Notes under the pieces: model-generated
Told to the model about the DNA's origin: nothing
Seen by the model: the letters and a program-made list of their open reading frames with translations, nothing else
The model's database searches: none
Position numbers and translations under genes: made by a program
Part shown: piece after piece, positions 5,401-58,554 of the stretch
Position numbering within the stretch: position 1 is the first letter of the stretch
Layout of the letters: every line of letters begins with the position of its first letter
NCBI GenBank assembly: GCA_023228995.1
Contig: JALOAD010000001.1
Location: 84,603-148,602, forward strand
Origin: Candidatus Muiribacterium halophilum
GTDB lineage: Bacteria; Muiribacteriota; Muiribacteriia; Muiribacteriales; Muiribacteriaceae
Direction: 5' to 3'
DNA: 64,000 bases

Positions 5401-5536
5401 ATGGATCAACCGCAACACCTGTTTTTGATAAAACCTTAGAATTATTAGTAACTCCACCACTACTTCCACCACATCCAATTAAAACCACAATTAACAATAA
5501 AGAAAATAATAATATTAGTTTGTTTTTATACAACAT
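2447..5536 (-). CDS. Large surface lipoprotein (lipobox LIGCGGSSGG). The N-terminal half has Listeria-Bacteroides-type repeat domains; the C-terminal half has more than 15 DUF285-type repeats (FNQDIxxWDTSNVTxMxxMF).
   Basis: Signal peptide + Cys lipobox. Reiterated ~26-aa FNQDI(S/G)xWDTSxVxxMxxMF units match the DUF285 (Mycoplasma/Listeria lipoprotein) repeat signature. YNLTYNGNDNTGG...FFAWNT and ITFNSGDNG...FKEWKVG segments resemble the Flg_new/InlB B-repeat. Confidence 0.8.
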   Translation of the reverse strand: MLYKNKLILLFSLLLIVVLIGCGGSSGGVTNNSKVLSKTGVAVDPYIIGAKFFIDSNNNGIIDTNEIISDISDDKGEFNFSTEIIIGQKIKMHAEFKGKHNGINYSGPLLECIAEQNDISGRVVLSPLTTLVSKYNLSKEEVAIILNEAFDFSAEIKITSSDILSNPMVFLPEDNEKLNIEHIKRLQSAIAVNGLIELLEKSAINKDDINTANITKILKPLANNVKSLLSVEKFEKLQELIPTDEPKFDIINLLSSVVSVNNTNIENITGNTIDALNTSIDNINKTENTKKILKLGIACYITDNFVDIKDKNAIITKVTSTLNSSDKTELTTYFNNITENTVISDKTYLITFNSGDNGKILTNNGLYSQGQIVEIKAEANTNYKFKEWKVGEKVISTSNPYNYTMPTKEVIITADFEIKQYNLTYNGNDNTGGTIPLVNSADYNPEVSVAGKGDLTKTDYEFFAWNTSSDGNGIFYLPGTIFNITQDTILYAQWGKLLEIKFKVNSNDALVIPLKGNLNVFIDWGDGSEIENIKIDQPSHNYTSINEYTVKIYGKADHLGFTSDELKSLTGNAPWHNYLVEIISFGDIGLNSLEGCLSSFNDDSYIFFKKLPNSIPKTVENLSYMFYCAEKFNQDISSWDTSNVINMSFMFCESIAFNQDIGSWDTSKVKNFEKMFYKSSVFNNDGVSLNWNKGFGENCDMTGMFGHAKAFNQDLSVWNTSNVTDMSLMFYYATVFNQDISNWDTSNVINMSRMFQSTGSFNQNIGSWDTSNVTDMSFMFCESIAFNQDIGSWDTSKVKNFEKMFYKSSVFNNDGVSLNWNKGFGENCDMTSMFSYAKAFNQDIGSWDTSNVINMNSMFSNASVFNNGGVSLKWDKGFGEKCNMYYMFDYASVFNQDISNWDTSKVTNMYGMFFNATAFNQDISSWDTSNVTDMKLMFSYASAFNQDIGNWDTLKVTNMYGMFSYATTFNQNISNWKTSNVTDMSFMFCESIAFNQNLSGWQLNENVYSNDFDLNATKWEPLYKPNFNN

Positions 5537-8877: not shown

Positions 8878-11439
8878 CTACTCCATTATAATACAATAAT
8901 CATTTTTTAATTCAAACATATATGTTTTAGTCTTTCTGGAATTTACAAGTGTATCCATAAATATCTTCCTAAGACTGTGTACACTTACTCTTAGAAGATT
9001 CAAGTCTGACAAATCTTCAAGTTTTCTTCCCCATACTTTTTCATAAATTTCATCTGAATTTAATTCTTTTCCTATATTAACACAAAAAAGTTTTAAAAGT
9101 TTTAATAATATGGTCTTTTTAAAAATATCATGTTTTTTTCCAAATACTAAAATTTCTTGATTAATAAAATCAATATAAATGTTATATTTCTCTTTTTTAC
9201 TGCTATATTCTTTCATTTCATAATATTCAATTTTTCTTTTAACACCGTTTACATTAATTTCAAAAAAACTACCACTTTGGTTTTTTTCAACAATAAATCT
9301 CAATCTATTTATTTCTCTAACTATAATAACAGAATTATAAAATGATAATCCTTGAATTATATTATTAATATCCTTGTTTTCTATCATATTTACTATTGAT
9401 TCAGCAAATACTTTCATATATTCCCAATCAGAAATATTTAAACTTTCTATTTCATTTTTTAAATTAATTTTATCTTTATCAATAATATATTTTAACACGA
9501 TATAATCTAAAAAAAACAAGTTATAAAATATGTAATAATTATTTTCTTTAAAAAATTTTAAGCTTTGCTCTATTTTAATATAAGCTTTGTAATAATCGTT
9601 TTTTAAAATATATATATGACCTAGTAATGCACTGTAAAAACCGTTTGTATTTTCCAATTCAAGAAATTTATCACCTGTTATTCCAAAAATTGATTTTTTT
9701 TCAAAAATTTTAATATATAAAATAACATATACAATTCTCTTATTAATAGTCTTTGCTTTATCATAATCTGCATAATATAAAAATTGTCTATAATACTCAT
9801 AAGCTTTCATTTTTGATCTTTTTGATAATTCAACAAGCGATAAATTAAAATATATATCTGATAATTTTTGTTTGTCATAATATGGATATTTTTCAATTAT
9901 ATCATTTAATACAAAATGACATTTATCATGTTCCATGAGATATAAATAACATTCACCCATTAATGCTTTTAAATTAATAAGTAATTTAAGCGAAACATTT
10001 TCACTTGATTTATCAATAAAATCTTTAAGATTTATTATACAGCTTTGAAGTAAACATAATTCTCTTTCTTTAAAAATTGTAATATATTGTATAATTATTT
10101 TTTCAGGTTTCGTTAAATTATCTGTTTTTAATTGTTCTTTAAATGAATTATTCAAATAAAAGGAATTTACTTTCAATAATAAATCTCTTTTTTTAGAATC
10201 ACATAATCTTTCTACATTTTCAATAAAAATATTTTTCTTTTCTTTTGTTAAAGCTTGTATCCACATATTATAATAATAAATTTCATCGTTAAATTCGCAA
10301 AGATATTCAATGTTTTCTTCAAGAAAAATATTCAAGTCAATATTATTTACAAAATCTATTGGAAAATTTTCAAAAGCATTTTTTATATATAAACAACATT
10401 TAAAATAATCTTCCGATGATTTAGAAAAAGTTATATATTCAAAAAAATTATCGACTGAAAATATATATTTTTCTTCGTAAAATTCAAGTATTTTTTTAGA
10501 TGTTTTTGTTATAATTTTTTTATCTGAATTATTAAGAATTGATATTTTCATCATATCTGAACATTTAATATTATTATCAATATCTTGTTCAATTACAAAA
10601 TGATTTTTTAAAAAATTTATATCATCTTCTTTAATATTAAAAAAATCAATAAAGTTTTTTTTATTTACTGCTATATTAAAAAAAGATAATAAAAACGTTA
10701 TTTCCTTCCTTTTTTGTGTAAGACCTTCATAATCAAGATAATTAATTTCTTTATTTATTGCATTAAGAAATGCATTTCCTTCAAATATATCATTTATTGA
10801 AAAATCATAACTTGTAAAAAGTGATATAAAAACTTTAATATATAAAGGAATTCCACCTGTTTTTTTATAAATTTTATTAAGCCAAAAAGAAGATATTTTT
10901 TTGTTATTTTGTCCTATAGAAATTTTTTCAACAAGTTTTACAAACTCAATATAATCAAGTTTTTTAACATTATAATGATAAATATCACTTTTTACACTTA
11001 AAGGAATTTCGATAAATTGTGAAGATAAAACAATAAGTTTTGAATTGTAAAAAATATCAAAAGCTTCTCTTATAAACTCTGAATGATCAATAAGACAAAA
11101 ATTGAAATTATCAAGTAAAATATAATTATTGTTTTTTTCTAAATATTCCAGAAATTCTCGAATATTGGCATTTTGATTGATTTTTAAATTATATTTAGTA
11201 TTTAGTAAATTGATTAATTCTTTAAAATCCATATTTCTTGTTACTTTAGCATATAATATTTTATTGTTTTTTCTATCAATATTAATATTTTCTAGAGCTT
11301 TTATAATAAAAGAAGTTTTACCAACTCCACGCATTCCATATATAAAAAAAATTGAAAAATCGTTGAATTTGTTTTTTAATCTTTCAATTTCATCTTTTCT
11401 ACCAGTAAAATTAACTAATTTTGAAAATTCTCTTTTCAT
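8878..11439 (-). CDS. STAND-type P-loop NTPase (AAA_16-like, helical/TPR-like middle) with a C-terminal OmpR/PhoB-type winged-helix DNA-binding domain
   Basis: 853 aa. FTGRKDEIERL + Walker A GMRGVGKTSF + Walker B-like YILLDNFNF in the first 120 aa. A long helical repeat region follows. The C-terminus (DIFKKTILLKLLKLF..GKELNSDEIYEKVWG....LLRVSVHSLRKIF) aligns with the Trans_reg_C motif (EF.LL.LL....G.V.sRe.L...VWG.......rtVdVHIrRLRKKL). Confidence 0.75.
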   Translation of the reverse strand: MKREFSKLVNFTGRKDEIERLKNKFNDFSIFFIYGMRGVGKTSFIIKALENINIDRKNNKILYAKVTRNMDFKELINLLNTKYNLKINQNANIREFLEYLEKNNNYILLDNFNFCLIDHSEFIREAFDIFYNSKLIVLSSQFIEIPLSVKSDIYHYNVKKLDYIEFVKLVEKISIGQNNKKISSFWLNKIYKKTGGIPLYIKVFISLFTSYDFSINDIFEGNAFLNAINKEINYLDYEGLTQKRKEITFLLSFFNIAVNKKNFIDFFNIKEDDINFLKNHFVIEQDIDNNIKCSDMMKISILNNSDKKIITKTSKKILEFYEEKYIFSVDNFFEYITFSKSSEDYFKCCLYIKNAFENFPIDFVNNIDLNIFLEENIEYLCEFNDEIYYYNMWIQALTKEKKNIFIENVERLCDSKKRDLLLKVNSFYLNNSFKEQLKTDNLTKPEKIIIQYITIFKERELCLLQSCIINLKDFIDKSSENVSLKLLINLKALMGECYLYLMEHDKCHFVLNDIIEKYPYYDKQKLSDIYFNLSLVELSKRSKMKAYEYYRQFLYYADYDKAKTINKRIVYVILYIKIFEKKSIFGITGDKFLELENTNGFYSALLGHIYILKNDYYKAYIKIEQSLKFFKENNYYIFYNLFFLDYIVLKYIIDKDKINLKNEIESLNISDWEYMKVFAESIVNMIENKDINNIIQGLSFYNSVIIVREINRLRFIVEKNQSGSFFEINVNGVKRKIEYYEMKEYSSKKEKYNIYIDFINQEILVFGKKHDIFKKTILLKLLKLFCVNIGKELNSDEIYEKVWGRKLEDLSDLNLLRVSVHSLRKIFMDTLVNSRKTKTYMFELKNDYCIIME

Positions 11440-15885: not shown

Positions 15886-16054
15886 AAATAGGATAATATC
15901 ATATTATTAGTAAAAAGCATAGTAAAAACAACAATTAAGTAGTATGTAAAGCGTATAAGAACAGTATGCGAGTATATGGTGCGTATAAGAGCGTGAAATA
16001 GTGAAGTGGTGAGATAGGAAAATCTTTAAATCCATTTCACTATTTCTCTATCTT

Positions 16055-19120: not shown

Positions 19121-19232
19121 TTAAGGGTTTAAGGGTTGAGGGTTGAGGGTTATGGGTTAAAAACCCGAATCCCTGTTTTTCCTCAGTTTTTACCAGGTTT
19201 TTCCCCGGTATCTCCCCGGTATCTCCCCGACG
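19121..19232. repeat. G-tract telomere-like heptamer repeats (GGTTTAAGGGTTGAGGGTTGAGGGTTATGGGTT), then a C-tract repeat (CCCCGGTATCT x2 + CCCC)
   Basis: Read directly. Five G3 tracts on the plus strand and three C4 tracts 60 bp downstream, in the promoter region of the LRR lipoprotein gene. Confidence 0.6.
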
Positions 19233-25495: not shown

Positions 25496-25787
25496 TTGTT
25501 AACCTCTTGGGGTCGGTCCACTATTTGTTTACAACCAAAATAATTATAAGTATATATAAATTTGCAATTTTGACTTTTTTTAGTAAAAAAACATGTTTAT
25601 AACGATTTAACCAAACAAAAATTTATAAGAATTAAAAAAAATTAATAATAATTTTTAATAAATTTTTGATTTTTGCAATTATTAAATAGTATATAACAAT
25701 TTTTATCTTAAAATTTCTTAATCCCTTGCAAAATCTATAAAAAACAATATTTTTTTATATTTTGTCAAGAATTAAGGTCCGACACCA

Positions 25788-28538: not shown

Positions 28539-28725
28539 TATTTTCCGCCTTAAATATTTTGTTTTTTAAAAGATTTTTAATAAAATTACTAAAATATAAT
28601 AACCAGATAATTGTTTTTTTTCAACACAACTGATTTATAGATAACAGGGTTTTATATATCTCCTATAAAGCTTTATTACAAATCCCAGCCCAGAACTTAA
28701 TCGGAATGAAAAACCTTAAATCTGC

Positions 28726-28773
28726 GAAATAGCCAAATAGCGAGATTGCGAAGTAGATTTAAAGCTTTTTAAT
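28726..28773. repeat. Conserved intergenic element, family B copy 1 (AAATCTGCGAAATAGCCAAATAGCGAGATTGCGAAGTAGATTTAAAGC)
   Basis: Shares AAATCTGCGAA(A)TAGC and GAGATTGCGAARTAGATTTAAA with 52752-52821. Both lie ~180-190 bp upstream of a minus-strand start and next to short tandem repeats. Confidence 0.75.
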
Positions 28774-28877
28774 TCTTTTATAATTTAACATTCCAAATTA
28801 AACATTGCTTTTGTACTGCTTCTATACGCTTCACATACCGCTTCTATACGCTCTTATACTCTTCTTATACTTCTTCT

Positions 28878-31153: not shown

Positions 31154-31266
31154 TAATTAGATGCAAATCATCGCTAATTAGCAATTTATTGCGTTAATTG
31201 CTTTCAATCTTCAACTCTTTAACCCATTAACCCTTTAACCATCTCACTATCTCACTATCTCACTTT

Positions 31267-36562: not shown

Positions 36563-36664
36563 AAAACCCTCTTTATGTGTTTTAAAGTTTCTATACCGAT
36601 TTTATACGTTTTTATACGCTTCACATAATGCTTCTTAAATTATTATAACATAAATTGTTTTACT

Positions 36665-39600
36665 TCAAAACAATTGTTGATTTTCTAATTTTTCTGTTCT
36701 AAATATTGATTTTTCAAGATTTTCATCCAAAGATATATTTTCAGAGTTTTTTATTTGTCTATCAATTTTCAAATATTCATCTTTTTCAAAAGTGCTTTTT
36801 TTAATTTTAAGCATATAAATTAGATTAAAACAGTTAAATATTGAATTTTGTTTAAGATCAGATAAACATATAAGCTGAGTATTAAATTTTTTGGCAATTT
36901 CAAATAAAGGAATAAGAAGATGTTGACTTGATATTGGACCGAATGGATTGTCCATTATAAGTATTCTTGAATCTTTTCCTGCTAAATTCTCAGAATTATT
37001 TATCATAGTATTATTTCTTATATATGCCATTAAAGCTGATATAACTGCAAAAAATACTACAAATTTTTCACCACCAGAATTTTCACTTATTGCACTTTCC
37101 CATTTTTTCCAACGATTATTTGCTGTATTAAGATCAATTTTATAAACACTTACTGGAATTGAATTTCTTCCTGAATACTGATTTATCAATTCTCTTGTAG
37201 ACATTAATCTAAAAATACTTTTATTTATTTTTTCGTTTTCATAATTTTGTCTTTTTTCTTCTCTAATATTTTGTATACAAGAATCAATATATTTTTCTAT
37301 TCTTTTTTTAGCATTTTCTTCATTATCAATATCTGTGTTTATCTTTATCATCTGAATTGGTCTGATTTTTTCTGATAATTTCACAGAAGATGATAATGCT
37401 ATTTTACCAAGTTCTTCAAATACTCTTTGAGCATGCACAAAACATTGAAATACAACATCATTTCTATTTTTTTCAACATTTTCAAGTCTTATTCTATTTA
37501 TTTCTATTAATTCACTTATTTTTATTATATAATCTTTTAATCTTTCAAAAAGATAATAATATTCATTGTATTTTTTATTTTTCCTTTCAATCATACTATC
37601 AATTGAAGTAAAAAGATTATCTATATTTTGATTTTTATGTTTAAATTCAGATCTTAATAATGAATAATTACCAATAAGCTGTTTTTCTTCATTATCCATT
37701 TGTTCTTTAAACAATTTATAATTACTTTCAAGATTTTTATAAATTATTTCAATGTTATCTTTTATATCAAATTCAATTATAGAGCTTGAAGGTAAATTTA
37801 AAATATCAATTCTTTGTTTAATTTTTTTAAATTCAGCAATTTCTTTTCTTAACTTTTTTTCAAGTAATATGTAATCTTTGCGATTTGAATTAATTGTATT
37901 TTTTCTTGCAATAAAATCTTGTTTGATATTTTCTCTTGGACAAGCTTTATCATAATCTAATCTTTCAATTTCCTTAAAAGCTTGTTCTTTCCCTCTATTT
38001 TCAGAACTTATATCTTTATCAACTATATTATAATCAGATATAATAGAATTTAGTTTATTATTTTGTAAATAGATATCAATTTCTGTTTTTTCTTCAATTT
38101 CTATGTTATATTCAATGTTATTCACTTCTTCTTCGTTAAATTTAAATCTTGAAAGTTCTTTTGTAAATTCTGATATTTCATTAATTGATTTTTCTTTTAA
38201 GATTATTAATGCTGAAAAATCTTTTGAATATTCTTTTTTCAAATTCTCATATATACTTAAAAGTTCTTCAATATTTTCTTTGAGTATTTCAGATTTTTCT
38301 TGAGCATTTGAGAATTTTAATTTATATTTTTCACATTCTGTTAATTTATTTTTTATAATTTCAATATTTTTATTTAATCCTGAAATTTCATTATTTATTT
38401 TTATAATTTCATTTTCATTTAATAAAATATCTTTATTGAGTTTTTCTATTGTTTTTTGAAGATTTTTTCTTTTTTCTAATATTCTGACATATTCTGAATC
38501 TTTCACTATAAATTCATTGAAATCATGTAATTTGACATTTAATAAATTGAGTTTATTTTGTTTTTCATTTAATTTATTTATATTATTCCTGATATTTATT
38601 TCTGCATTTTTATTTTCATTATTTAAAATTTCAATTTTTTTTTCTATTTCATTAGTTTTTTGTAATAAATCTCTTTCATTTTTTTCAGCTTGATATAAAA
38701 AATCCTCTTTATAATCAAATTCTTGAAGAATTCTAAAATCATTTGATGCAATATTATAAGAATTAGCAATATCCTTATATATATTTTCAAGAGATTTTTT
38801 TTCATTTTCTTTTTCATTAAGAAATTTTTCAGTTTTATCAATTTCAAATATTCGTTTTTCAACATTAACAATAAAATTCAAATCTTCATTGATTTTAATA
38901 AATACATTATTGTTTTCAAAATCAACATTTGTATTTTCATAAAAAAATAAAGGAATTGAACTTTTAATAAATTTATCTTTAAATACATCTTTAACTTTAT
39001 TAATTTGATCTTTTTTTAATATAATTGAATAAGCAAGAAGAGGATTTTTTTCAAGTAAAGAATTTCTATTATCTTTTTTTTGATTTTTAATAAAATTCTC
39101 ACCAGTTTCAAATTCAATATTATTATTAATCAAAATATCAATTATATTTTGATCTATATGAAGAGAATTTTGTTTAATTCCTTTAATAATATTTTCAATT
39201 AATTTTATATCAGAAGAAAGTTCTTTTTTTCTATTATCATAATCAATAAGAATATTTTTAAATTCAAATTCAATATGTTTTTTATCAAAAATTCTTTGTT
39301 TTTTTAATTCATATTTTTTTAATATTTCATAAGATTTATCTCTTTTATCTGTGAATAATGCAATTTCATCTATTTTTTTTTGATAAAGTAAAATATTATC
39401 TCTAACTTTATTAGAAAAGTCTTTGATTAAATCAGAATTATTTTGCAATTTATTTTCTAATTTTAAATTTTGCTCATTTATTTGTAAAATCTCATTATTA
39501 TGATTTGCAATTTTATTTTCAATTTCACTTATAAATAAATTAAACTCATCTATATCAATCTGCCCAAGAATATTTCTTAATATTTTAACATTATTATTTT

Positions 39601-41074
39601 TTTCAAAATCCAATTGATATTTTTCAAATATAATAGCTTTTTCATTTACAGAACCAAGACTAATATTAGAAGAATTAATTGTTTTTTTAAATTCTTTTTG
39701 TTTAATTAAAATTTCTTCAAGATTTTGCTTTGAAATTTGTTTATTATTTTCAATATTTTTATATTGATTTTGTAAATTTACAATTCTTTCATCAAACTTT
39801 ATTTTTAGAGAATATTCAATATGAGATAATCTTTCTTGTATATTGGAATTTTTTTCAAGACTTAAAATTTTTTCATTATAACCTTTTAAATCATTTTCAC
39901 AATTGATTTTTTTATCATAAATCTTTTTAAATCGAAGTTTTTCAAGAAATATATTAAGTTTTTTTATATTATCTTTTAAAATATTAATCTTTTCTAATAA
40001 TGTGATTTTTCTTTTTTCCAAAATTTCAAGCTTATCAACAGAATTATAATAATCAAGACTTCTTTCTTCATAATCAATATTTTTAAGAGAATATTCAGCT
40101 TGAATTAAAAATTTAGAAATATCATTTTCCTCTTTTTCAAGTTGTTCTATTTTATCACTTAAAATATTTTCAATATATTTAATTTTCTTTTCAGTATTTT
40201 CTTTATTTTCAATAATTGCAGTAAAAATCTCAATATCTTTTGAAAAATCCTCAAGTTTTTCTGAAAAATTCTGCAAAAGCTCTTTTTCAATAAGAAATTC
40301 CTCATTTCTAATTATTTCATCAACAAGATTAGACATCATTTGTCCAAGATGCCCAGCTTGATTTTTATCTTTATAGAAAACCTTTAATATTGTTTTATTT
40401 AAAAACCATTCATTAATCAATTGATCTGAATTTTTACATTTTTGAAAAATCTCATCAAGACCACCTTCACTATCATTTATACCAATGATTATATTTTTCC
40501 ATTCATCCTGAGAAATTCCATATTCAGATAAATGCTCTCTATATTCTTCCATATTTTCCTGAGAAAATATCCTAAAATCCATTGAAGATTTTTTAGCTCT
40601 TTCATCAGCAAATTCTCTAGCTTTTTTATAATTCATAACATTAATAACATTTCCTTTCCTAGCAGAAAAACCAATATTACTAATATCATAAGAATTTGAC
40701 TGTGAATATTTTGATGTAAACATAAAAAATCTAAGCCTTGAGTTTTTTTCTCCATCCATTCCATGAAACTCATGATTTTCACAAACAATACCTGTTAAAA
40801 GATAATCAGAAGAATAATCAAGTTTCCATTCTATCATTATAAAACAAGGTAATTTAGAAGTTTTAAAAAAATCAGCAAATTTTCTACCTTGAATCTTTGC
40901 CCCAGGTACAATTGGTTGAAGCATAACTTGAACAAGAACACTCTTTCCTCCACCATTTGCAAGACTTAAAAGAGCATTTTCACCTTTATAAAAATCAAAC
41001 ATTTCATCAGTAATATGTCTTGTAAAATTATTATATGAAAAATTAAGAACTCTTATTCGATTGATTTTAGGCAT
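36665..41074 (-). CDS. jetC: Wadjet JetC / MksB-like SMC-family ABC ATPase (1469 aa)
   Basis: N-terminal Walker A LANGGGKSVLVQV. Very long coiled-coil middle. C-terminal signature NSGGEKF and Walker B ILIMDNPFG. Last gene of the jetDABC operon. Confidence 0.75.
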   Translation of the reverse strand: MPKINRIRVLNFSYNNFTRHITDEMFDFYKGENALLSLANGGGKSVLVQVMLQPIVPGAKIQGRKFADFFKTSKLPCFIMIEWKLDYSSDYLLTGIVCENHEFHGMDGEKNSRLRFFMFTSKYSQSNSYDISNIGFSARKGNVINVMNYKKAREFADERAKKSSMDFRIFSQENMEEYREHLSEYGISQDEWKNIIIGINDSEGGLDEIFQKCKNSDQLINEWFLNKTILKVFYKDKNQAGHLGQMMSNLVDEIIRNEEFLIEKELLQNFSEKLEDFSKDIEIFTAIIENKENTEKKIKYIENILSDKIEQLEKEENDISKFLIQAEYSLKNIDYEERSLDYYNSVDKLEILEKRKITLLEKINILKDNIKKLNIFLEKLRFKKIYDKKINCENDLKGYNEKILSLEKNSNIQERLSHIEYSLKIKFDERIVNLQNQYKNIENNKQISKQNLEEILIKQKEFKKTINSSNISLGSVNEKAIIFEKYQLDFEKNNNVKILRNILGQIDIDEFNLFISEIENKIANHNNEILQINEQNLKLENKLQNNSDLIKDFSNKVRDNILLYQKKIDEIALFTDKRDKSYEILKKYELKKQRIFDKKHIEFEFKNILIDYDNRKKELSSDIKLIENIIKGIKQNSLHIDQNIIDILINNNIEFETGENFIKNQKKDNRNSLLEKNPLLAYSIILKKDQINKVKDVFKDKFIKSSIPLFFYENTNVDFENNNVFIKINEDLNFIVNVEKRIFEIDKTEKFLNEKENEKKSLENIYKDIANSYNIASNDFRILQEFDYKEDFLYQAEKNERDLLQKTNEIEKKIEILNNENKNAEINIRNNINKLNEKQNKLNLLNVKLHDFNEFIVKDSEYVRILEKRKNLQKTIEKLNKDILLNENEIIKINNEISGLNKNIEIIKNKLTECEKYKLKFSNAQEKSEILKENIEELLSIYENLKKEYSKDFSALIILKEKSINEISEFTKELSRFKFNEEEVNNIEYNIEIEEKTEIDIYLQNNKLNSIISDYNIVDKDISSENRGKEQAFKEIERLDYDKACPRENIKQDFIARKNTINSNRKDYILLEKKLRKEIAEFKKIKQRIDILNLPSSSIIEFDIKDNIEIIYKNLESNYKLFKEQMDNEEKQLIGNYSLLRSEFKHKNQNIDNLFTSIDSMIERKNKKYNEYYYLFERLKDYIIKISELIEINRIRLENVEKNRNDVVFQCFVHAQRVFEELGKIALSSSVKLSEKIRPIQMIKINTDIDNEENAKKRIEKYIDSCIQNIREEKRQNYENEKINKSIFRLMSTRELINQYSGRNSIPVSVYKIDLNTANNRWKKWESAISENSGGEKFVVFFAVISALMAYIRNNTMINNSENLAGKDSRILIMDNPFGPISSQHLLIPLFEIAKKFNTQLICLSDLKQNSIFNCFNLIYMLKIKKSTFEKDEYLKIDRQIKNSENISLDENLEKSIFRTEKLENQQLF

Positions 41075-41766
41075 TATATTGCATCCTCAAATATTTCTCT
41101 AATATCTTTAACTCTATCCTGATCAAGATAATAATTTATCATTATATCATCAAGCTTAGATGTAGATCTAATTTCTCTATTATCATCAAGTATAATAATA
41201 AGATCTTCTTTTTGCATAAATCTTGCAGCTTTAATAACAGTATAAGTTTTAGTTTTTCTTGAATTTTCATCATATCCTTGTTTTGAATCCCATTCTTGAG
41301 CTATTTTTATAAAATTAATACTATATTTTTCTTCCATTTTTTCATAATCTTCCGAATTTGAAAGAATACGAATAAATCTTTCATCAAGTTTTTCAACAAT
41401 TTCATGAATTCTAATAAAATCTCTTTGTTTTGGATTACGATTTTTACCACCATAAAAAATATGAAGAATAAACATAGATATATACGAATTAAGAAATACA
41501 TCAACAAGTCTTGCATCACTTCCTAACCATTCTCTCATATTTTTAGAAGTCCATCCCAAAAGATCATTTGAAGAATTCGGGATAATATAAGCTATATGAG
41601 AAAGTTCAACAATATCAAATTCAAAAACTTCTTCAAAATCATATAGAATAGTTCTAATATCAGGATTTTTAAATTCAATAAATAATTCAAGATCATTATC
41701 CTTAGATAATTCACCTTTTTTTAGAAGTATTCTAAATATATTAAGAGCTGTTTTTAATTCACTCAT
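41074..41766 (-). CDS. jetB: Wadjet JetB / MksE-like (DUF4194-type) subunit
   Basis: 230-aa acidic helical protein between the kleisin-like and SMC-like genes. 1-nt and 4-nt start/stop overlaps. Confidence 0.55.
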   Translation of the reverse strand: MSELKTALNIFRILLKKGELSKDNDLELFIEFKNPDIRTILYDFEEVFEFDIVELSHIAYIIPNSSNDLLGWTSKNMREWLGSDARLVDVFLNSYISMFILHIFYGGKNRNPKQRDFIRIHEIVEKLDERFIRILSNSEDYEKMEEKYSINFIKIAQEWDSKQGYDENSRKTKTYTVIKAARFMQKEDLIIILDDNREIRSTSKLDDIMINYYLDQDRVKDIREIFEDAI

Positions 41767-43376
41767 ATTTGAACCTCAATAAGAAAATCAGACAATATTA
41801 TTTTTTTATTAATATTTAAATTATTTTCAGATATTGTATATTCACATTCAAAATTCACATTGTCATCCTTTGATATTTTAATACTAATAACATTATAAAT
41901 ATCAGGATTTTCATCCTCAATAGCATATAAACAAACATTAGCATCAAACTCGCCAGATATATCAGCAATAATATTTTCTCTTTCTTTCTTCCAAGCTATA
42001 ATATCAAGCAATCCAATATCATAAAGCTTTAACATTGTTCTAAATATTCTTTCTTCACTTGTAAAAACATCAATATTTTCATATTTTTCATTAAGAAAAC
42101 TAAAAAAATCAGAAAATCTAAATTTATTAAACTCTTTTCCATAAATCATAATATTTTTCACAATATCAATATAAGCATTTGTTCTTTCTTTTTCAAGAAA
42201 AATAATACTTTCATCATTTTCAGTTAAATTTTCCACAATATCAGAAAAATTAGCAAATTCTTTTTCCCTAAGCTTGTATTGTCTTTCATATAATTTAATT
42301 AAATTAAGTATATTTTTAATATCTGGTTTAAAAATTGGATTAAAAAGTTTCCATAAACAACAATATTTATCCTCAGATAATTTTTCCATAACACAAAGAA
42401 TTTCATCTTCAATATCAAATCTTCTATTAATTGTTTTTGAAAAAGAATCTCCAATTGTGTCAATATATATTTTAGATAAATTATGCCTATTTATAATCAA
42501 TTCTCTCTGTTCAGAAACAGTTCTATCAATGTTTTTTAGAATTTCAGCAATATCATTTTTAGCTTTTCTAATTTCCACATTATCACTATCAGAATTTTCA
42601 TCTTTAAACAAATTAAATTCAGATAATTTCACAGTTTTATGAATATCATCCATAACTTTATACTCATCTTCAAGAAGAGCATAAGTACCCTTGATAATAA
42701 TTTCATACTCAGCAACATCAACTGAATAAATATTTTCACGAAGTTTTTCAAGAAATCTTAAAATCTCTGATTTTTTTTGCCTAACCATTTGAACAAGACT
42801 TCTGCTTTGCAATACAGCTTTTTTGTAATTTTTACGCTTAATAAGTTCTTTAAGTTTTAATTCTTCAATAGTAAAACTAATTTCATCATCAACTTCCTTT
42901 GTCCTAAAAAGAAAATCATAACCTTGATCAGTAAGTCTATAAATAACTTTATAACTTTTTTCAGTATAAATAACTTTATCATCAATAAGTTTAACCCTAT
43001 ATTTAATTTTTCCAGCAGAATAATCCATAATATCAAAAAATCTTGGTTTACCACCATTTTGAAGAATATCCTTAACAAGATATTCAGCCAAAATTAAATT
43101 ATCAATATCAATTTCACCATAAAAAGGAAGAATTAAACCAAGAAAATCCGCAATATTATTAATACTACATTCATTATCTTCTGAAAGAGTTTTTTCCATT
43201 ATAAAAACAAGAAGAGAAAAAAGAATATTTTCCAAATCACCTGAATTAAAACGATTTTCAATATCCATTTTACGCTCTCTGCGATTAACAATAGAATCAA
43301 CAGCCCCAGAAACCTGCATTCTTTTATAAAAACCCTCAAGATATTCAGGATATTTAGCAATCACAATTTTCTCCAA
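41763..43376 (-). CDS. jetA: Wadjet JetA / MksF-like kleisin-type subunit (DUF3375-type)
   Basis: 537 aa. Position and size fit jetA. Helical with winged-helix-like segments. Confidence 0.55.
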   Translation of the reverse strand: MEKIVIAKYPEYLEGFYKRMQVSGAVDSIVNRRERKMDIENRFNSGDLENILFSLLVFIMEKTLSEDNECSINNIADFLGLILPFYGEIDIDNLILAEYLVKDILQNGGKPRFFDIMDYSAGKIKYRVKLIDDKVIYTEKSYKVIYRLTDQGYDFLFRTKEVDDEISFTIEELKLKELIKRKNYKKAVLQSRSLVQMVRQKKSEILRFLEKLRENIYSVDVAEYEIIIKGTYALLEDEYKVMDDIHKTVKLSEFNLFKDENSDSDNVEIRKAKNDIAEILKNIDRTVSEQRELIINRHNLSKIYIDTIGDSFSKTINRRFDIEDEILCVMEKLSEDKYCCLWKLFNPIFKPDIKNILNLIKLYERQYKLREKEFANFSDIVENLTENDESIIFLEKERTNAYIDIVKNIMIYGKEFNKFRFSDFFSFLNEKYENIDVFTSEERIFRTMLKLYDIGLLDIIAWKKERENIIADISGEFDANVCLYAIEDENPDIYNVISIKISKDDNVNFECEYTISENNLNINKKIILSDFLIEVQI

Positions 43377-44418
43377 GAAATTTCATAAAAACCTCATAAT
43401 TAACAATTTCTTGCGGAATATACAACTTAGAATTAAGAATAAATTTAATATTATTTTGAATTTCAAAGTTAAAATAATCTAAAAAAACATCAATATCAAT
43501 ATTTTTCTTCCTTAAAGAAAAACATTTAGGCAAATTAATATTATAAGATAATTTTATCATTAATTCGTATAATCGCATAAACGGATATACCAAACATTCA
43601 GAATTATTACTCAAAATCCTCATAAAAATATCAACACCCTCAAAATCCAAATCACCAAAATATAAAAAATCAACTTTATCAGCAATATTATTTTCTAAAA
43701 TATACAATCTATAATAATCAAGAGCATTTTTTCTTGTAATTTTATTACCCTCACCGTAAATCAAAACATCAATATAAAGACCAAAAATCAAATTCTCACC
43801 TTTATTTTGAATAGCTTTTTTCAAAGAAAACCAAGTATCTTTATTTTCAATAACAAGAATTTTCATATCTTTATTTTTCCCACAAACATATTCAAAAAAC
43901 GGTTCATAAGTATCAAAAAAATTAAGAAAATTCAATTCAAGCTTATTAAATTTAAAAACCTGTTCTAAAAGAGATAAATTTTTTTCAATAAATTTTTCAT
44001 AAAGAAATATTTCAAAAGATCTTTCATTTCTTGAAATCTTCAATTTAGGAATACAATTATTTTGCCATAAATAATCAGAAATAGGTTCTAAAACACATTT
44101 ATGAATATTATATTTTTGAGGATATTTAAGATATTTTTCAATACAAAAAACAGGATTCAACCTTCTAATTTCTTCAAAAACAACATTATTATAAGGTTTA
44201 TCAGCAACAATTCTATATCTATTAAATAAAGGAAATTTAATATTACCATCAGTATTAGAAGCTTTTATCCTACAAATAATATTTTCATTTTCAAGAATTG
44301 AAATTTTTTGAAAAAGTTCACAATTCTGTTTTTCGTCAATAATAACAGCAATTTCTTTAAGAGTAATTGTCTTTTTTTTATATTTTTGTAATTTTTTCCT
44401 AATCAAATTTATATTCAA
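43354..44418 (-). CDS. jetD: Wadjet JetD / MksG-like nuclease subunit (C-terminal Toprim, DUF2220-type)
   Basis: Toprim acidic motifs ILVIENKDTW (Glu) and LYFGDLDFEGVDIF (DxD) about 54 aa apart in the C-terminal half. First gene of the operon, as in mksGFEB. Confidence 0.65.
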   Translation of the reverse strand: MNINLIRKKLQKYKKKTITLKEIAVIIDEKQNCELFQKISILENENIICRIKASNTDGNIKFPLFNRYRIVADKPYNNVVFEEIRRLNPVFCIEKYLKYPQKYNIHKCVLEPISDYLWQNNCIPKLKISRNERSFEIFLYEKFIEKNLSLLEQVFKFNKLELNFLNFFDTYEPFFEYVCGKNKDMKILVIENKDTWFSLKKAIQNKGENLIFGLYIDVLIYGEGNKITRKNALDYYRLYILENNIADKVDFLYFGDLDFEGVDIFMRILSNNSECLVYPFMRLYELMIKLSYNINLPKCFSLRKKNIDIDVFLDYFNFEIQNNIKFILNSKLYIPQEIVNYEVFMKFLGENCDC

Positions 44419-46085: not shown

Positions 46086-46180
46086 TATTTACCTCAACTT
46101 TAATACAATTAGTACATTAGATGAAATTAACGACTACTAAAGTAGTCTAATTAACGCAACTTCGTTATAATATAACTTCG

Positions 46181-46223
46181 TTGCTAATTAGGTGCAAAGC
46201 ACCGCTAATGCTCTTTCTTGCTT
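46181..46223. repeat. Conserved 43-bp intergenic element, copy 1 (TTGCTAATTAGGTGCAAAGCACCGCTAATGCTCTTTCTTGCTT), containing the hairpin GGTGC-aaa-GCACC
   Basis: 42/43 identical to 58387-58429. Lies inside the xdh operon between the FeS-subunit and xdhC genes. Confidence 0.8.
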
Positions 46224-49061: not shown

Positions 49062-49490
49062 TTGTTTTTTGTAAAGCTCTGGGGTCGGTCCACTTTAGGT
49101 TTTCAACTGAAATATTTATAAGTATAATTTATGATTTTTAATTTTAACGATTATAAGGTTTATTTATCCATAAAAAAAACAAATTTTATAAAATTTTATT
49201 AACAATATAGACATTATTTATTTAGTAAATTAAATTAAATTTATTGTATTTTATAAAATCCTGAAATCATAATATTTTGTTTTCTATCAATCCTTTCAGA
49301 ATTAAAAATGTTGATAATTCTTGAAAATTAAATTTAAAAAACATCATTTTATAAAAAATTTATTTTTTCATTTTAAATTCTAAGTTGCAATTCAATTTCA
49401 AATTGAAATTTGACCATTATAATCAGCAATTTTAATTCTCGCAGTGAAATTTGTAAACATTTCAAGCACCGACCCCAAGCTTTACAAAAT
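49062..49490. repeat. 24-bp inverted-repeat pair (TTTTGTAAAGCTCTGGGGTCGGTCC at 49062-49086; GCACCGACCCCAAGCTTTACAAAA at 49467-49490) bracketing a 380-bp AT-rich segment
   Basis: The arms are 24/25 identical as reverse complements. A third arm-like copy (CTTGGGGTCGGTCCACTATTTGTTTACAACC) is at 25497-25530. Confidence 0.75.
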
Positions 49491-50591: not shown

Positions 50592-51131
50592 ATGAGAGTT
50601 TTTGCTGCTTTTGATATATCAAATGAATTCAAAATCAAGTTATATAATTCTATAGAAGATTTAACTTTAAAATATTCTGATATTAATTGGGTTAAACCTG
50701 AGAATTTTCATATTACACTGAAATTTTACGAAAATATTGGTGATATTCAAAAAGTTAAAGATGAAATAATTGATTTTTCTAATAATATTACAAAAATACC
50801 TGTTAAATTCAGAAAATTTTCTTTTTTTTCACATAAAGTATTTTATGCTCAGCTTAAATTTACTCCTTTTAAAATTGTAAAAACTATAAAAAATCAATTA
50901 AATACCAATTTTACTCCTCATATAACTCTTGCAAGAAATAAATTTGGAATAGAAATTAAAGAAAATATTGTTGAATCAATGCAGAATATTGATTTTAATC
51001 ATTCAGAAATTTTAGATAATATAACAATATACGAAAGTATTTTAAAAAAGACAGGTTCAGAGTATAGAATAATTGAAAAAATTTATTTAAAAAACTCTTC
51101 GCAAAAATCCTGCACATTTTGCTCAAGATAA
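50592..51131 (+). CDS. thpR: RNA 2',3'-cyclic phosphodiesterase (LigT/ThpR, 2H phosphoesterase)
   Basis: Two H-x-T-x motifs: NFHITLKFY and TPHITLARN. The ATG at 50592 follows the upstream stop. Confidence 0.85.
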   Translation: MRVFAAFDISNEFKIKLYNSIEDLTLKYSDINWVKPENFHITLKFYENIGDIQKVKDEIIDFSNNITKIPVKFRKFSFFSHKVFYAQLKFTPFKIVKTIKNQLNTNFTPHITLARNKFGIEIKENIVESMQNIDFNHSEILDNITIYESILKKTGSEYRIIEKIYLKNSSQKSCTFCSR

Positions 51132-52573
51132 GAGCATAATGCTATATAACAAGGACAATCTTCATAAAGACGAAATTCATACGGTGAATCAAGACCAATT
51201 ACAATAGTGTTTTCATTAGCTCTCGTAACAGCAATACCTAGGTTTTCCCTACCTTCATCATAATGAGCATTTATACTATACAAAATTACAGCTTCATATT
51301 GAGTTGCTTTTTCTTTTATTATTTCAATCTCATTATTATCAGGGCTTAATGAATATTCTATAAGTTCAGATTTTCTTTTAAAATATTTAACACTTCTATG
51401 AAAATAATTTACTCCTTCTTCACCATAAATTGCCTTATAATCTGGTGCTATAACAAGAATATCTTTTACATCTTTTATTTTATGAACAAAATCTTTGCCT
51501 TTAAAATATTTTATACATTCTTTCATTATAGATTGAACTATTTCTCTATTTTGTTTTTTTATATTATAAAGAGTTTTTTTGTTTGCACTTATATTTTCTG
51601 ACAAAGTATTAAAAGAATCTAGTTTTTGTAATGATTTTTCTTTTATATTACCTTTTTTTATTTCCATATAAAGACCATTATAAGCTTCAATATTTTCTCT
51701 AAGTCCACCAGGCATTATAATTAGATTACATCCTGCTTTATAAGCATTAATAACACTATGAGAAGGTTTTATACCTGAAAATTCTTTCCTATATAAAGAT
51801 GATGACATTACAATACCTTTGTATTCAAGTGTATTTCTTAAAAGGTCTATTATTTCTTCTGAAAAACATGCTGGTTCTTTAACTGTTTTTGATTCTTTAA
51901 AATAATAAACATCAGAAACTTCAATTACTGGAATATTTTCTTGAAAAGCTTTTTTAAAAGAAAGAATTTCATCTTCAAACATACTTTCAAATCCTCTATG
52001 AACTGTGTTAAATTGTATATTTGAAAATTCTTCTAATGAACCAATTCCTGGAAAATTCATGCCACAAAGTATTACACCTGTATCTTTAAATGCTTTAATG
52101 AAATTTGCAATATATTCAGAGTTTTCTCCGATTGTATCATTAAAAGATGATGTTCCAACAAACATATTATGATTATTCATATTAATATTTAAAAAATCTG
52201 AAATCACCATGTTAATTCCAAGGGATTTTAATTCTTCAGCCATTATTTTTGCTATTTTATAAGCATTTTGAGGATTTTCTGATAATCCTACGGTCATATT
52301 TGAAGGTATATGAGTTATATTTTTATTAACAGGCATTTGAGTTCCACCACCTGCATGAATTGCAAATATATAATCATTATCTGGATATTTTTTATTAATT
52401 TTTGAAATTGCATTTTTTATATCTGCTGGATTGTTTAAGTTGAGAGTTGATAATAGAAAAAAACAAGCTCTATATTTTTCAATATACATCTGAATTTCAA
52501 GCTCAATATCTCCAGATGAATCTCCCATTAAAGGATACATAAGTATTTGTGATAACTTGTTTTTAACTTCCAT
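51083..52573 (-). CDS. Glycoside hydrolase family 3 protein (NagZ-like beta-N-acetylhexosaminidase) with C-terminal extension
   Basis: GH3 N-domain pattern (YPLMGDSSGDIELE...FAIHAGGGT...LKSLGINMVISDFLNI). Confidence 0.7.
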   Translation of the reverse strand: MEVKNKLSQILMYPLMGDSSGDIELEIQMYIEKYRACFFLLSTLNLNNPADIKNAISKINKKYPDNDYIFAIHAGGGTQMPVNKNITHIPSNMTVGLSENPQNAYKIAKIMAEELKSLGINMVISDFLNINMNNHNMFVGTSSFNDTIGENSEYIANFIKAFKDTGVILCGMNFPGIGSLEEFSNIQFNTVHRGFESMFEDEILSFKKAFQENIPVIEVSDVYYFKESKTVKEPACFSEEIIDLLRNTLEYKGIVMSSSLYRKEFSGIKPSHSVINAYKAGCNLIIMPGGLRENIEAYNGLYMEIKKGNIKEKSLQKLDSFNTLSENISANKKTLYNIKKQNREIVQSIMKECIKYFKGKDFVHKIKDVKDILVIAPDYKAIYGEEGVNYFHRSVKYFKRKSELIEYSLSPDNNEIEIIKEKATQYEAVILYSINAHYDEGRENLGIAVTRANENTIVIGLDSPYEFRLYEDCPCYIALCSYLEQNVQDFCEEFFK

Positions 52574-52660
52574 TTATTGTTTAAACCTCTAATTAAAAAT
52601 GTAGTTGTACAGAAAATATCTATTAACGACTGCAAAAACATTATAAATAATACTTAGTAT

Positions 52661-52691
<31 letters not shown>

Positions 52692-52751
52692 CAGTATGAT
52701 TAAGTTAAAACAAAATCAAATCCTGGCTCAAAATCATACCGGGATGACACT

Positions 52752-52821
52752 AAAATCTGCGAATAGCAAATTAAAATGTTCAGTGAACATTTTTGTGTGA
52801 GATTGCGAAATAGATTTAAAA
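52752..52821. repeat. Conserved intergenic element, family B copy 2, with a 27-bp insertion carrying the palindrome ATGTTCA-g-TGAACAT
   Basis: Read directly and compared with 28726-28773. Confidence 0.75.
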
Positions 52822-52837
52822 TTTTTCCTACTTCGCC

Positions 52838-53232
52838 ATTTCACTCTTTCACTCTTTCACTCTTTCACCATTTCGCCATTTCACTCTTTCACTCTTTCAC
52901 TCTTTCACTCTTTCACCATTTCGCCATTTCACTCTTTCACCATTTCACTCTTTCACCATTTCACTCTTTCACCATTTCACTCTTTCACCATTTCACTCTT
53001 TCACTCTTTCACCATTTCACTCTTTCACCATTTCACTCTTTCACCATTTCGCCATTTCACTCTTTCACCATTTCACTCTTTCACCATTTCGCCATTTCAC
53101 TCTTTCACCATTTCACTCTTTCACCATTTCGCCATTTCACTCTTTCATCATTTCACTCTTTCACCATTTCACTCTTTCACCATTTCACTCTTTCACCATT
53201 TCACTCTTTCACCATTTCACTCTTTCACCCAT
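52838..53232. repeat. About 50 tandem copies of a degenerate octamer (TCACTCTT / TCACCATT / TCGCCATT)
   Basis: Read directly. Units of 8 bp with three variants. No stop codons in any frame, which explains the artefactual 160-aa ORF 52776-53258. Confidence 0.9.
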
Positions 53233-53254
53233 GCTCTTTAGCTTCTATACTTTA

Positions 53255-54352
53255 TTAATACAACAAAAGTTTTTCTCTTTTTCCTGTATATTCATCAAGT
53301 GTTTTCATTGCTTTATAATAAACTTCAGATAGCGGAATATATCTTTCAAGAGATTTCCTTATTCTATCATCTGAAAACAACTCATCAATAACATAATTAT
53401 CTCTATTGTTCATTACAAACTCAAATTCACCAAATGTATTATAACATATTTCTATAATATTCAAAAATAATTCAATAGAATTTAATAATTCCTTGTTAAT
53501 AACTTTAAATTGAATTCCTTTGCATAATTTATTTGAATAAACTCCATTTTCTGGTATAAATTCACATGTTTCCATTTCAAAACCTTCCATTCCAAGATAA
53601 ATTATCTGATCAAATACATTATCTGAATCAATCCATGGTGCTCCAAAAACTGAATAACTTTTTTCAGTTCCAATACCAATTGAAAGATTTGTACCTTCAA
53701 GAAGATGAAATCCTGGATAAAGAAAAAACGCATTATAATCCTTAATATCAGGAAATTGAAATTCAAATACTGGTTTTATATCATCTAAAAATTTTTCTCT
53801 ATTATAACCTTCCATTTTTATAACATTAATTTTTGCTTCTCTAAAAAGTTCTTCTTGTAAAAAAAGCCCTATTTCTCCAATTGTAAGACCATGTCTCAAA
53901 GGTATATTAATTCTTGAATATTGACCTATTATACCGTCAAATATATTACCATTTATAGGATTTGGTCTGTCGAGAATATAAAGTTGAATATCTTTTCCAT
54001 TTATAAATTCAATTATTTCATAAAGTGCTTTTATTACATCAGTATTTTTTACTCCATAATTTTGTATATCAAAAAGAATAACTTTGACTTTAAGTAATTT
54101 TTTGTATGTTTCTTCAGAAAAAGCTGGAAGAATCGGGATTTTATTATATTCAGTTAAATTTTCATCTTTATTAATAAAAAAACCAAATGATGGTTCAATA
54201 ATGTATTTTAAATTGTAATTAGGATTAAAAAAATTATCAATAACTCTCTCACCATTGCAATCATACATGTTATAAGAGGTAAATATTGCAAGCGGTATAT
54301 CTTTTATAAAATGCGATTTTTTTAATAGTAAAACATCAATTCCATTTAACAT
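53255..54352 (-). CDS. DUF1343 family protein (NamZ/YbbC-like exo-beta-N-acetylmuramidase)
   Basis: N-terminal LNGIDVLL and LDRPNPINGN motifs characteristic of DUF1343. Adjacent to the GH3 gene, as in nagZ-ybbC clusters. Confidence 0.7.
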   Translation of the reverse strand: MLNGIDVLLLKKSHFIKDIPLAIFTSYNMYDCNGERVIDNFFNPNYNLKYIIEPSFGFFINKDENLTEYNKIPILPAFSEETYKKLLKVKVILFDIQNYGVKNTDVIKALYEIIEFINGKDIQLYILDRPNPINGNIFDGIIGQYSRINIPLRHGLTIGEIGLFLQEELFREAKINVIKMEGYNREKFLDDIKPVFEFQFPDIKDYNAFFLYPGFHLLEGTNLSIGIGTEKSYSVFGAPWIDSDNVFDQIIYLGMEGFEMETCEFIPENGVYSNKLCKGIQFKVINKELLNSIELFLNIIEICYNTFGEFEFVMNNRDNYVIDELFSDDRIRKSLERYIPLSEVYYKAMKTLDEYTGKREKLLLY

Positions 54353-58357: not shown

Positions 58358-58386
58358 ACTTTATATGATTATTATATTGTTTTTCT

Positions 58387-58429
58387 CACTAGATTTGCTA
58401 GCAAATTGCTAATTAGGTGCAAAGCACCG
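58387..58429. repeat. Conserved 43-bp intergenic element, copy 2, preceded by the perfect palindrome TTTGCTAGCAAA
   Basis: Read directly and compared with 46181-46223. Confidence 0.8.
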
Positions 58430-58554
58430 CTAATGTTCTTTCTTGCTTTTCTAATTGTCTATTTATAGACATTAATGCTCCTTCGCTATTTCACTAGTTC
58501 TTAAATTGCTTTTATAATTCTTAATTTTTAATTATTAATTGTTATTTGTTTATA

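Follow-up and report, generated by a model that had tools for sequence, protein, structure and literature searches.

The window analysed here, a stretch of 64,000 nucleotides (nt) from Candidatus Muiribacterium halophilum (contig JALOAD010000001.1, positions 84,603 to 148,602 of the forward strand), contains an array of 50 tandem octamers within the 681-nt spacer of two minus-strand genes, NamZ and, following it, GH3. NamZ matches an NCBI protein of Ca. Muirbacterium halophilum at 100% identity (the spelling is now Ca. Muiribacterium halophilum, phylum Ca. Muiribacteriota). GH3 gave a weak NCBIfam match to beta-N-acetylhexosaminidase, below the curated cut-off, and a relative of 89% identity carries this name in JGI. 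The features of the locus are listed in sense order; the last is an open reading frame (ORF) on the opposite strand.

53255 to 54352, minus strand: NamZ, exo-beta-N-acetylmuramidase family (DUF1343), with Pfam domains NamZ_N and NamZ_C; stop codon at 53255-53257.
52833 to 53232, minus strand: octamer array of 50 units, reading AAGAGTGA / AATGGTGA / AATGGCGA on the sense strand and TCACTCTT / TCACCATT / TCGCCATT on the plus strand.
52797 to 52844, minus strand: stem-loop 1, with the last two array units (GUGAAAUGGCGAAGUAG) as one arm, their single-copy inverted partner (CUAUUUCGCAAUCUCAC) as the other and a loop of 14 nt.
52773 to 52793, minus strand: stem-loop 2 (AAAAUGUUC ACU GAACAUUUU), followed by AAUUU, as predicted by folding of a 46-nt segment.
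52700 to 52826, minus strand: family-B conserved intergenic element, aligning with 28660-28775 at 76% column identity.
52656 to 52691, minus strand: heptamer repeat, (TTTATAC)x5 on the sense strand, from Tandem Repeats Finder and a promoter scan.
51083 to 52573, minus strand: GH3, a NagZ-like beta-N-acetylhexosaminidase, with Pfam domain Glyco_hydro_3; start codon at 52573.
52776 to 53258, plus strand: artefactual ORF of 160 amino acids, a product of the stop-free plus strand of the array.

Along the sense strand the NamZ stop codon is followed by 22 nt, the array, stem-loops 1 and 2, the rest of the family-B element, the heptamer repeat, the ribosome-binding site AGAGG and the GH3 start codon. 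An earlier note on this DNA, made from the letters alone, had placed the array between a conserved element and a NamZ-like gene, which the alignment of the family-B element and the Pfam gene calls bear out. It had also described the array as lying upstream of GH3. As it begins 22 nt past the NamZ stop codon and leaves 259 nt to the start of GH3, its position is better described as immediately downstream of NamZ.

Direct reading in steps of eight bases parsed positions 52833 to 53232 into 50 head-to-tail octamers in unbroken register. Tandem Repeats Finder reported the array with periods of 16, 40 and 56 and with scores of 481-542, the highest among the short-unit arrays of the window. Both results agree with the perfect 8-bp periodicity of about 50 copies noticed earlier; the start given then, 52838, has to be moved five bases, to 52833. 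The units comprise 25 copies of TCACTCTT (A), 17 of TCACCATT (B), six of TCGCCATT (C), one TCATCATT (D) and a degenerate final unit TCACCCAT (E), in the order CAAABCAAAABCABABABABAABABABCABABCABABCADABABABABAE. They are organized in higher-order blocks, (AB)n with a 16-bp period and (ABABC)x3 with a 40-bp period. The earlier description of three unit variants in a higher-order pattern therefore stands for the pattern and its periods, whereas the variants number one more, the singleton TCATCATT. The unit variants form three linked haplotypes and hence offer no readout of constrained versus free positions. The sequence TTTCACNNTTTCAC has 36 copies in the window, every one of them inside the array, where 0.03 were expected from shuffles. 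With head-to-tail short units in non-coding DNA, far above chance and between the ORFs of both genes, the array is a non-coding variable-number tandem repeat and an octamer member of the intergenic 6-9-nt repeat class.

The two strands of the array differ strongly. Base counts of the plus strand are T175 C150 A69 G6, that is 37.5% C and 1.5% G (15.6% C in the plus strand of the whole window), with 101 YC dinucleotides, no stop codon in any of the three frames and a predicted minimum free energy of 0 kcal/mol for its RNA. The minus, gene-sense strand is purine-rich, contains almost no C and holds 13-16 stop codons per frame, with TGA in all three. A G-quadruplex was dropped for want of G3 runs in the array, as the G runs of the sense strand do not exceed GG, save for one GGG at the NamZ end. 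Three further candidates were set aside: a Shine-Dalgarno-like decoy (GGUGA and AAGAG are partial matches only), a BoxA-like GCTCTTTAGC at 53235-53244 (on the antisense strand and probably due to chance) and tandem five-codon mini-ORFs (ATG GTG AAA GAG TGA), which the sequence does contain but the arrays of other phyla lack.

The preference of Rho is for RNA that is rich in C, poor in G and unstructured, and the plus strand of the array has the composition of a Rho utilisation site (at least 80 nt that are C-rich, G-poor and unstructured), a likeness in composition only. The array might thus act as an antisense insulator, at which a plus-strand transcript from the GH3 side would load Rho and be halted before reaching NamZ. 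The C and YC content and the lack of folding agree with such a role, as does the same orientation bias in other bacteria, seen among the matches listed below. However, the promoter scan found no antisense promoter of any quality, 80 nt would suffice and leave the 400 nt of the array unexplained, and a simple avoidance of sense-strand Rho loading would account for the composition just as well. We consider such an insulator quite improbable.

The 160-residue ORF on the plus strand is readily called by gene callers. It had no Pfam match, an exact look-up found no gene call on record, its sole "homologues" were other octamer arrays, and it would run antisense to the local gene orientation. A stop-free, artefactual ORF had been proposed earlier, and these results, together with the absence of plus-strand stops, uphold it; the array is thus a caution for gene callers and for assemblers. 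The latter is evident from four short-read assemblies whose contigs end inside the array (L121, L123 and L122 from ENA, L191 from Logan and L192 from JGI/NCBI). Such breaks, and a plus strand open in three frames, might suggest that the array is an assembly artefact or a real coding repeat. However, in assembly ERZ27247346 (ENA) contig L121 enters from the NamZ side and contig L123 from the GH3 side, the two overlap across the unique TCATCATT unit, and together they rebuild the exact 50-unit order of the window; the longest exact internal repeat of the array measures 96 nt. Because contigs of an independent sample overlap at this unique unit and give the same 50 units, an assembly artefact is excluded. 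A coding repeat is opposed by the properties of the ORF, so that the explanation as a whole has very little probability.

The same contigs inform on copy number. Over 10,851 nt, L192 is identical to the window save for one "mismatch", by which TCATCATT comes to lie 16 bp (two units) closer to the NamZ end: L192 reads EABABABAD where the window and L121 read EABABABABAD, i.e. (AB)3 versus (AB)4. In the simplest reading, this difference is probably an insertion or deletion of two units (16 bp). The 8,084 aligned positions of L123 are identical to the window save for one 7-nt gap, which reduces the heptamer repeat from five copies to four. Both comparisons place every difference between near-clonal populations in repeats, which supports a slippage-prone behaviour. 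A sample with an altered five-copy heptamer still had all 50 units of the array, which is accordingly variable but not wildly unstable; the interspersed unit variants probably damp slippage.

The proposed proneness of the array to whole-unit changes in copy number thus finds support in the probable 16-bp change of L192, in the one-unit change of the heptamer in L123 and in the contigs that break within the array. An invariant length among strains, one part of the finding that the earlier note had named as speaking against its reading, is probably not what the contig comparison gave, as L192 probably differs by two units. Of the proposed hypervariable typing locus the practical half holds: the array breaks short-read assemblies and probably differs between otherwise identical populations, and because of the latter it can serve strain typing with long reads. 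The other half does not, since an array that kept its 50 units in ERZ27247346 is variable and not extremely unstable.

NamZ and a GH3 N-acetylglucosaminidase act in one peptidoglycan-recycling pathway and share an operon in Bacillus subtilis, which makes co-transcription of NamZ and GH3 across the spacer plausible. A consensus scan of 52300-53500 found no Rho-independent terminator; clear terminators are visible by eye in other spacers of the window. For NamZ, the metagenome scan revealed no relatives and the next-best hit of the protein search after the self-match was about 29% identical; comparison across species accordingly covers the GH3 side.

Phase variation is known to make use of repeats that separate promoter hexamers or precede them, and the position of the array upstream of GH3 led to the proposal that it might alter promoter spacing for this gene. 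The geometry contradicts such a switch. The array lies inside neither gene and ends 259 nt from the start codon, with two stem-loops and the conserved element intervening before any promoter-like hexamers, and a change in octamer number would leave the -35/-10 spacing as it is. The sole minus-strand sigma-70-like hexamer pairs between array and GH3 are located outside the array, in the heptamer repeat at 52656-52691, where two TTTATA-N17-TATACT promoter-like pairs overlap, 83-118 nt before the GH3 start codon. A promoter-spacing switch formed by the octamers has hardly any likelihood in our view; the TTTATAC heptamer repeat, not the octamer array, is a candidate for an effect on the GH3 promoter.

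The GH3-side end of the array participates in a predicted hairpin. Stem-loop 1 has an imperfect stem of 17 positions and a folding energy of -15.3 kcal/mol (z = -2.9; two of 200 shuffles were as good). Stem-loop 2 (-10.5 kcal/mol, z = -3.8) is A+U-rich with a short U-rich tail; it is missing from the other family-B copy and appears as a 23-nt insertion in the alignment. The whole sense spacer was no more structured than shuffles (z +1.0). Both family-B copies follow a post-stop tandem repeat and precede the next gene by 100-190 nt. Rfam gave no matches at gathering score in the window, and 52400-53400 returned only sub-threshold chance matches. A search of metagenome contigs for further copies with the pattern TTCGCAATCTC-N(10-40)-TTCGCAGATTT yielded eight unrelated matches in GC-rich, coding-looking sequence.

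The array is not the only short-unit repeat of this genome, for which the 64 kb of the window were surveyed. Further arrays were located at 2328-2374, 15993-16021, 19121-19229, 28818-28870, 31219-31264, 36587-36618 and, as described above, 52656-52691. Most of them lie within 30 nt of a stop codon; their units are not all related to GTGAAA. Several loci with related units near ORF ends are thus present within 64 kb. Examples are as follows.

15995 to 16046, minus strand: post-stop hairpin with arms of GUGAAAU-type units and their complement (GUGAAAU/AUUUCAC), -15.7 kcal/mol, z = -3.5.
28818 to 28870, minus strand: post-stop array of GTATAGAAGC-type units (sense), 7 nt after the stop codon and followed by the second family-B copy.
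31219 to 31264, minus strand: post-stop arrays of three GTGAGATA and three GGTTAAAG-type units (sense), 2 nt from the stop codon of the upstream gene.
19175 to 19229: GGGGAGATACC repeat, a member of the post-stop repeat population.

Complementary TTATAC-type runs are located closer to start codons. The 50-unit array is the extreme member of this post-stop repeat population. Two other motifs were observed in spacers of the window. At 19121-19160, TTAAGGG/TTGAGGG heptamers on the plus strand (antisense to the genes) have five G3 runs at 4-5-nt spacing, a formal G-quadruplex motif. They adjoin CCCCGGTATCT 11-mers (19175-19229), and both are found upstream of the start codon at 19045, at a distance of 75-185 nt. 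Rehm et al. described a GGGNATC class to which the heptamers bear a resemblance. The motif ATTAGCG(G/A)TG(C/A)TTTGCA(C/T)CTAATTA occurs in three spacers (46120-46200, 58380-58460 and 31154-31200), downstream of a purine-rich post-stop sequence and with the appearance of a small hairpin.

The pairing of the array end with a single-copy partner invites comparison with the (ATCTTTC)n repeat of hmw1A, for which a dosage mechanism has been described (PMC12721329). By analogy, copy number would set the amount of GH3 or the stability of the NamZ mRNA via a hairpin cut by a double-strand RNase. Among the functional alternatives this one is the most attractive. It agrees with the lack of a canonical terminator between the genes and with the probable difference in copy number from one population to another. 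However, two units pair here, compared with ten in hmw, the full spacer is not more stable than its shuffles, and GH3 has promoter-like sequences of its own downstream of the array. NamZ and GH3 are housekeeping-type recycling enzymes and not surface antigens. The similar repeats that follow unrelated genes across the window likewise argue against gene-specific tuning, and we regard a dosage device of this kind as unlikely.

Close relatives of GH3 in a large protein collection were limited to two, with 89% and 74% identity. The short contigs of both begin about 200 nt upstream of GH3 in runs of short units, of CCCTACAAA, CCACCAAC, GTTAGNGG and GTAC/TTATAC types. The contig of the 74% relative starts with GCGAAAGA GTGAAATA GTGAATG GTGAATG GTGAAAGC. 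As far as these contigs reach, the spacer appears to be repeat-filled across the lineage, with a content that turns over fast and GTGAAA-type units that persist there. Hairpins in the upstream arrays of the relatives (L124, L125) and at 31154-31266 were no better than those of shuffles.

Comparable arrays were sought in other bacteria by a scan of one genome per species for at least four TTTCACNN units, which resulted in at least 120 loci; this cross-phylum sample is defined by its own search pattern or by similarity to the pseudo-peptide of the array. The 80 titled loci listed belong mostly to Bacteroidota and Acidobacteriota, and most loci listed carry four to five units. Of the 85 single arrays among the matches listed, 61 face the stop codon of an ORF that has 100 or more amino acids and carries GTGAAA on its sense strand (p = 7e-5). 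The median gap between array and stop codon is a few nt, and co-oriented gene pairs split 32 to 10. A strongly complementary partner lies within 120 nt downstream of the GTGAAA arm in 47 of 131 arrays and upstream in none, and the paired arrays always follow the order GTGAAA-loop-TTTCAC, which is to be expected of hairpins whose 5' side is A-rich and whose 3' side is U-rich. Arrays of this type appear to share the position and polarity seen in the window. L187, from a genome of 57% G+C, repeats the arrangement of the window, as about 35 GTGAAAT(G/A) units immediately follow a stop codon and an inverted partner of five units comes about 370 nt later. The long array of a Sphingobacteriales genome is a mixture of TCACTC, TCACCA and TCGCCA types. 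In viral contigs, 30 loci with TTTCAC arrays compare with 12 and 20 for two shuffled cores (1.5-2.5 times). This excess is too small for TTTCAC to be claimed as a dedicated motif.

Among the genome contigs of other phyla (L001-L120), long and perfect hairpins made of GTGAAA/TTTCAC octamer arrays are frequent between convergent genes in Prevotella, other Bacteroidota and Acidobacteriota. Prevotella spacers also hold other octamer arrays, e.g. of GAGTTGAC types, and a recurring GGCGCWAGCCAT junction. In contig L188 (350 kb, 38% G+C, almost no called genes), about 23 TTTCACTC units at 4040-4240 lie beside tRNA-like sequences. This contig may be eukaryotic; if so, such arrays are not confined to bacteria.

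The shared polarity would fit a conserved post-stop element that spans phyla. GTGAAA octamer arrays could then be a polar, multi-register hairpin of Bacteroidota, Acidobacteriota, Muiribacteriota and other phyla, with the purine-rich units as 5' arm and the TTTCAC units as 3' arm. Such a hairpin could end or stabilise transcripts or recruit a common RNA-binding factor, and the 50-unit array would be a runaway 5' arm that tunes the coupling of NamZ and GH3. We consider this a doubtful proposition.

The units may also be iterated binding sites for a protein, either on the sense RNA, (GUGAAAGA/GUGAAAUG)n, for an S1, cold-shock or CsrA-like protein, or on duplex DNA for a ribbon-helix-helix protein bound at 8-bp spacing. 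Binders of this sort were proposed for heptamer repeats by MacGregor (PMC4679880), and the ACTC boxes of the ParG operator and parH have the same 8-bp register (PMC3130281). The register would suit the 25 of 50 units that are TCACTCTT, in which a TTTC spacer follows ACTC; in the remainder ACCA or GCCA takes the place of ACTC, and all share one orientation. GTGAAA-type units at the locus of the 74% relative and TTTCAC cores with variable last two bases in many phyla are in line with a conserved site. However, no partition or ribbon-helix-helix gene adjoins the array (the neighbours are NamZ, GH3, a LigT-like gene and one without Pfam match; small ORFs were not scanned). The three linked haplotypes show no constrained positions, and 50 sites are far above known operators. 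The viral arrays exceed those of shuffled cores by the 1.5-2.5 times mentioned above, and the cross-phylum sample is defined by its pattern. A binding platform seems improbable to us.

The explanation that we favour, with about an even chance of being correct, is that slippage expanded the 5' arm of a hairpin module behind the stop codon into the present array, which is transcribed as the 3' untranslated region (UTR) of NamZ or as the NamZ-GH3 spacer and, as a passenger, is tolerated in this orientation. The ancestor would have been a short post-stop hairpin module like that at 15995-16046, and modules with GTGAAA-type arms appear to occur in many other bacteria. Slippage would have enlarged its 5' arm, and the length of the array would still change in both directions through slipped-strand mispairing or unequal exchange; that it grew in more than one register is indicated by the 16- and 40-bp blocks. 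Such a transcribed array would be largely a passenger, and only this orientation would be tolerated. The sense strand is untranslatable and without a C-rich Rho loading site and hence need not impose polarity on GH3. If the array were inverted, all frames would be open and the transcript would present 400 nt of unstructured RNA that is rich in C and free of G. Phenotypic effects, if any, would stem from the length of the spacer and not from a sequence-specific activity.

Several points weigh against this explanation. The change in L192 could be a point substitution that created a second TCATCATT unit, as the contig ends there. The terminal hairpin uses two of the 50 units, and its z of -2.9 in the folding test stands against a non-significant z of -1.5 in a cruder duplex test. 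The GTGAAA-type units kept at the orthologous site of the 74% relative exceed what a purely neutral passenger would predict, barring concerted evolution. The orientation bias may reflect a leading-strand or mRNA purine skew, as the plus strand of the window has a negative GC skew, and the cross-phylum statistics use crude ORF calling on a pattern-defined sample of at least 120 loci. Transcription, operon status and any effect of Rho are inferred.

Should the array be a tolerated passenger and no more, its main importance would lie in the caution to gene callers and assemblers noted above. In a wider view, the array adds an octamer example from a barely studied candidate phylum to a poorly understood class of intergenic 6-9-nt repeats. 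Its post-stop position, the purine-rich, stop-filled and C-free strand on the mRNA side and an inverted partner that lies downstream only suggest a common constraint at the 3' ends of genes. The polarity shared by GTGAAA-type arrays across phyla is one aspect that might repay a census.

The window contains further loci of interest. A complete type III Wadjet anti-plasmid system is encoded on the minus strand at 36665-44418 in the order JetD, JetA, JetB, JetC (PADLOC E-values 1e-78, 3e-167, 1e-81 and 4e-144, respectively). At 49067-49489, imperfect inverted repeats of about 40 nt with GGGGTCGGT(C/G)C enclose about 345 nt of very A+T-rich sequence. This element, which resembles a miniature inverted-repeat transposable element, sits in a 504-nt spacer upstream of a xanthine-dehydrogenase-like operon; similar end sequences are visible in the spacer at 25.5 kb (possibly 25496-25787). 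The region 2447-5536 codes for a DUF285 / Listeria-Bacteroides-repeat protein of 1029 amino acids with tandem coding repeats of 75 nt and 387 nt (2550-3665). An 853-residue protein encoded at 8878-11439 combines an NB-ARC/STAND NTPase with a C-terminal OmpR/PhoB-type DNA-binding domain and had no PADLOC match.

Repeats of the kind studied here have already been described in cyanobacteria, Xanthomonas, Beggiatoa and Bacteroidetes; literature on the present organism was found to contain no report of repeats. Anatomy, variation, genome-wide habit and the published precedents all point to membership of the array in this known class. The STRR heptamers of cyanobacteria, attributed to Mazel et al. 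in 1990, are reportedly tandem, non-coding, present at many loci per genome and suited to strain fingerprinting. They differ from the array in phylum, in their units and in having few unit families genome-wide, a comparison for which 64 kb were surveyed here.

Plasmid TP228 provides the ParG operator OF and the centromere parH, with 8-20 ACTC boxes and 4-bp AT-rich spacers (PMC3130281). The array has the same 8-bp register, and half of its units read ACTC followed by TTTC, a resemblance in spacing only. In contrast to the plasmid sites, it lacks parF or parG nearby, has a chromosomal housekeeping setting and presents 50 units in one orientation.

The (ATCTTTC)n repeats of hmw1A and hmw2A in Haemophilus influenzae are transcribed within the UTR and form the left arm of a long hairpin whose right arm is non-repeat sequence; RNase III cuts the hairpin, and higher copy numbers lower expression (PMC12721329). 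Tandem short units are common to both systems; in the array, pairing of repeat units with a non-repeat partner is predicted and variation by whole units is probable. However, the hmw repeat belongs to the 5' UTR of a surface adhesin, and both its inverse dosage and its dependence on RNase III are proven (PMC12721329), whereas the array has a 3' UTR or intercistronic position, pairs through two units and is known here from sequence alone.

TAACTGA heptamers of Beggiatoaceae, Cyanobacteria and Bacteroidetes (MacGregor 2015) are intergenic, occur in distant phyla and reach 43 copies; they are mixed with other short repeats in a spacer, are lacking or different in relatives, and contigs end inside them (PMC4679880). 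Similar to these, the array is long, shares its spacer with a heptamer repeat and interrupts contigs partway through. The Beggiatoa sets are mostly found just upstream of start codons in forward orientation, which suggested translational control (PMC4679880); the octamer array, unlike them, sits close behind the upstream stop codon and ends 259 nt short of the following start codon.

The GGGNATC / GGGGA(C/T)T heptamers of Xanthomonas and Nostoc (Rehm et al. 2015) are intergenic, spread over the genome and favoured between co-oriented ORFs. They lie on the coding strand at most 50 bp after stop codons, most are transcribed, and no function has been assigned to them. Close relatives differ in the length and sequence of these repeats, which showed no connection with phase-variable surface genes (PMC4692102). 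The array is likewise intergenic, post-stop and probably variable in length, with a unit of the 6-9-nt class. Unlike the array, with at most GG, the GGGNATC units carry G3-4 tracts, prefer four units and form G-quadruplexes; their maximum is 26 copies, compared with 50 copies of 8-bp units here (PMC4692102). What is new in the present array is an octamer in place of a heptamer, an unusual length and its occurrence in a candidate phylum without earlier reports of such repeats.

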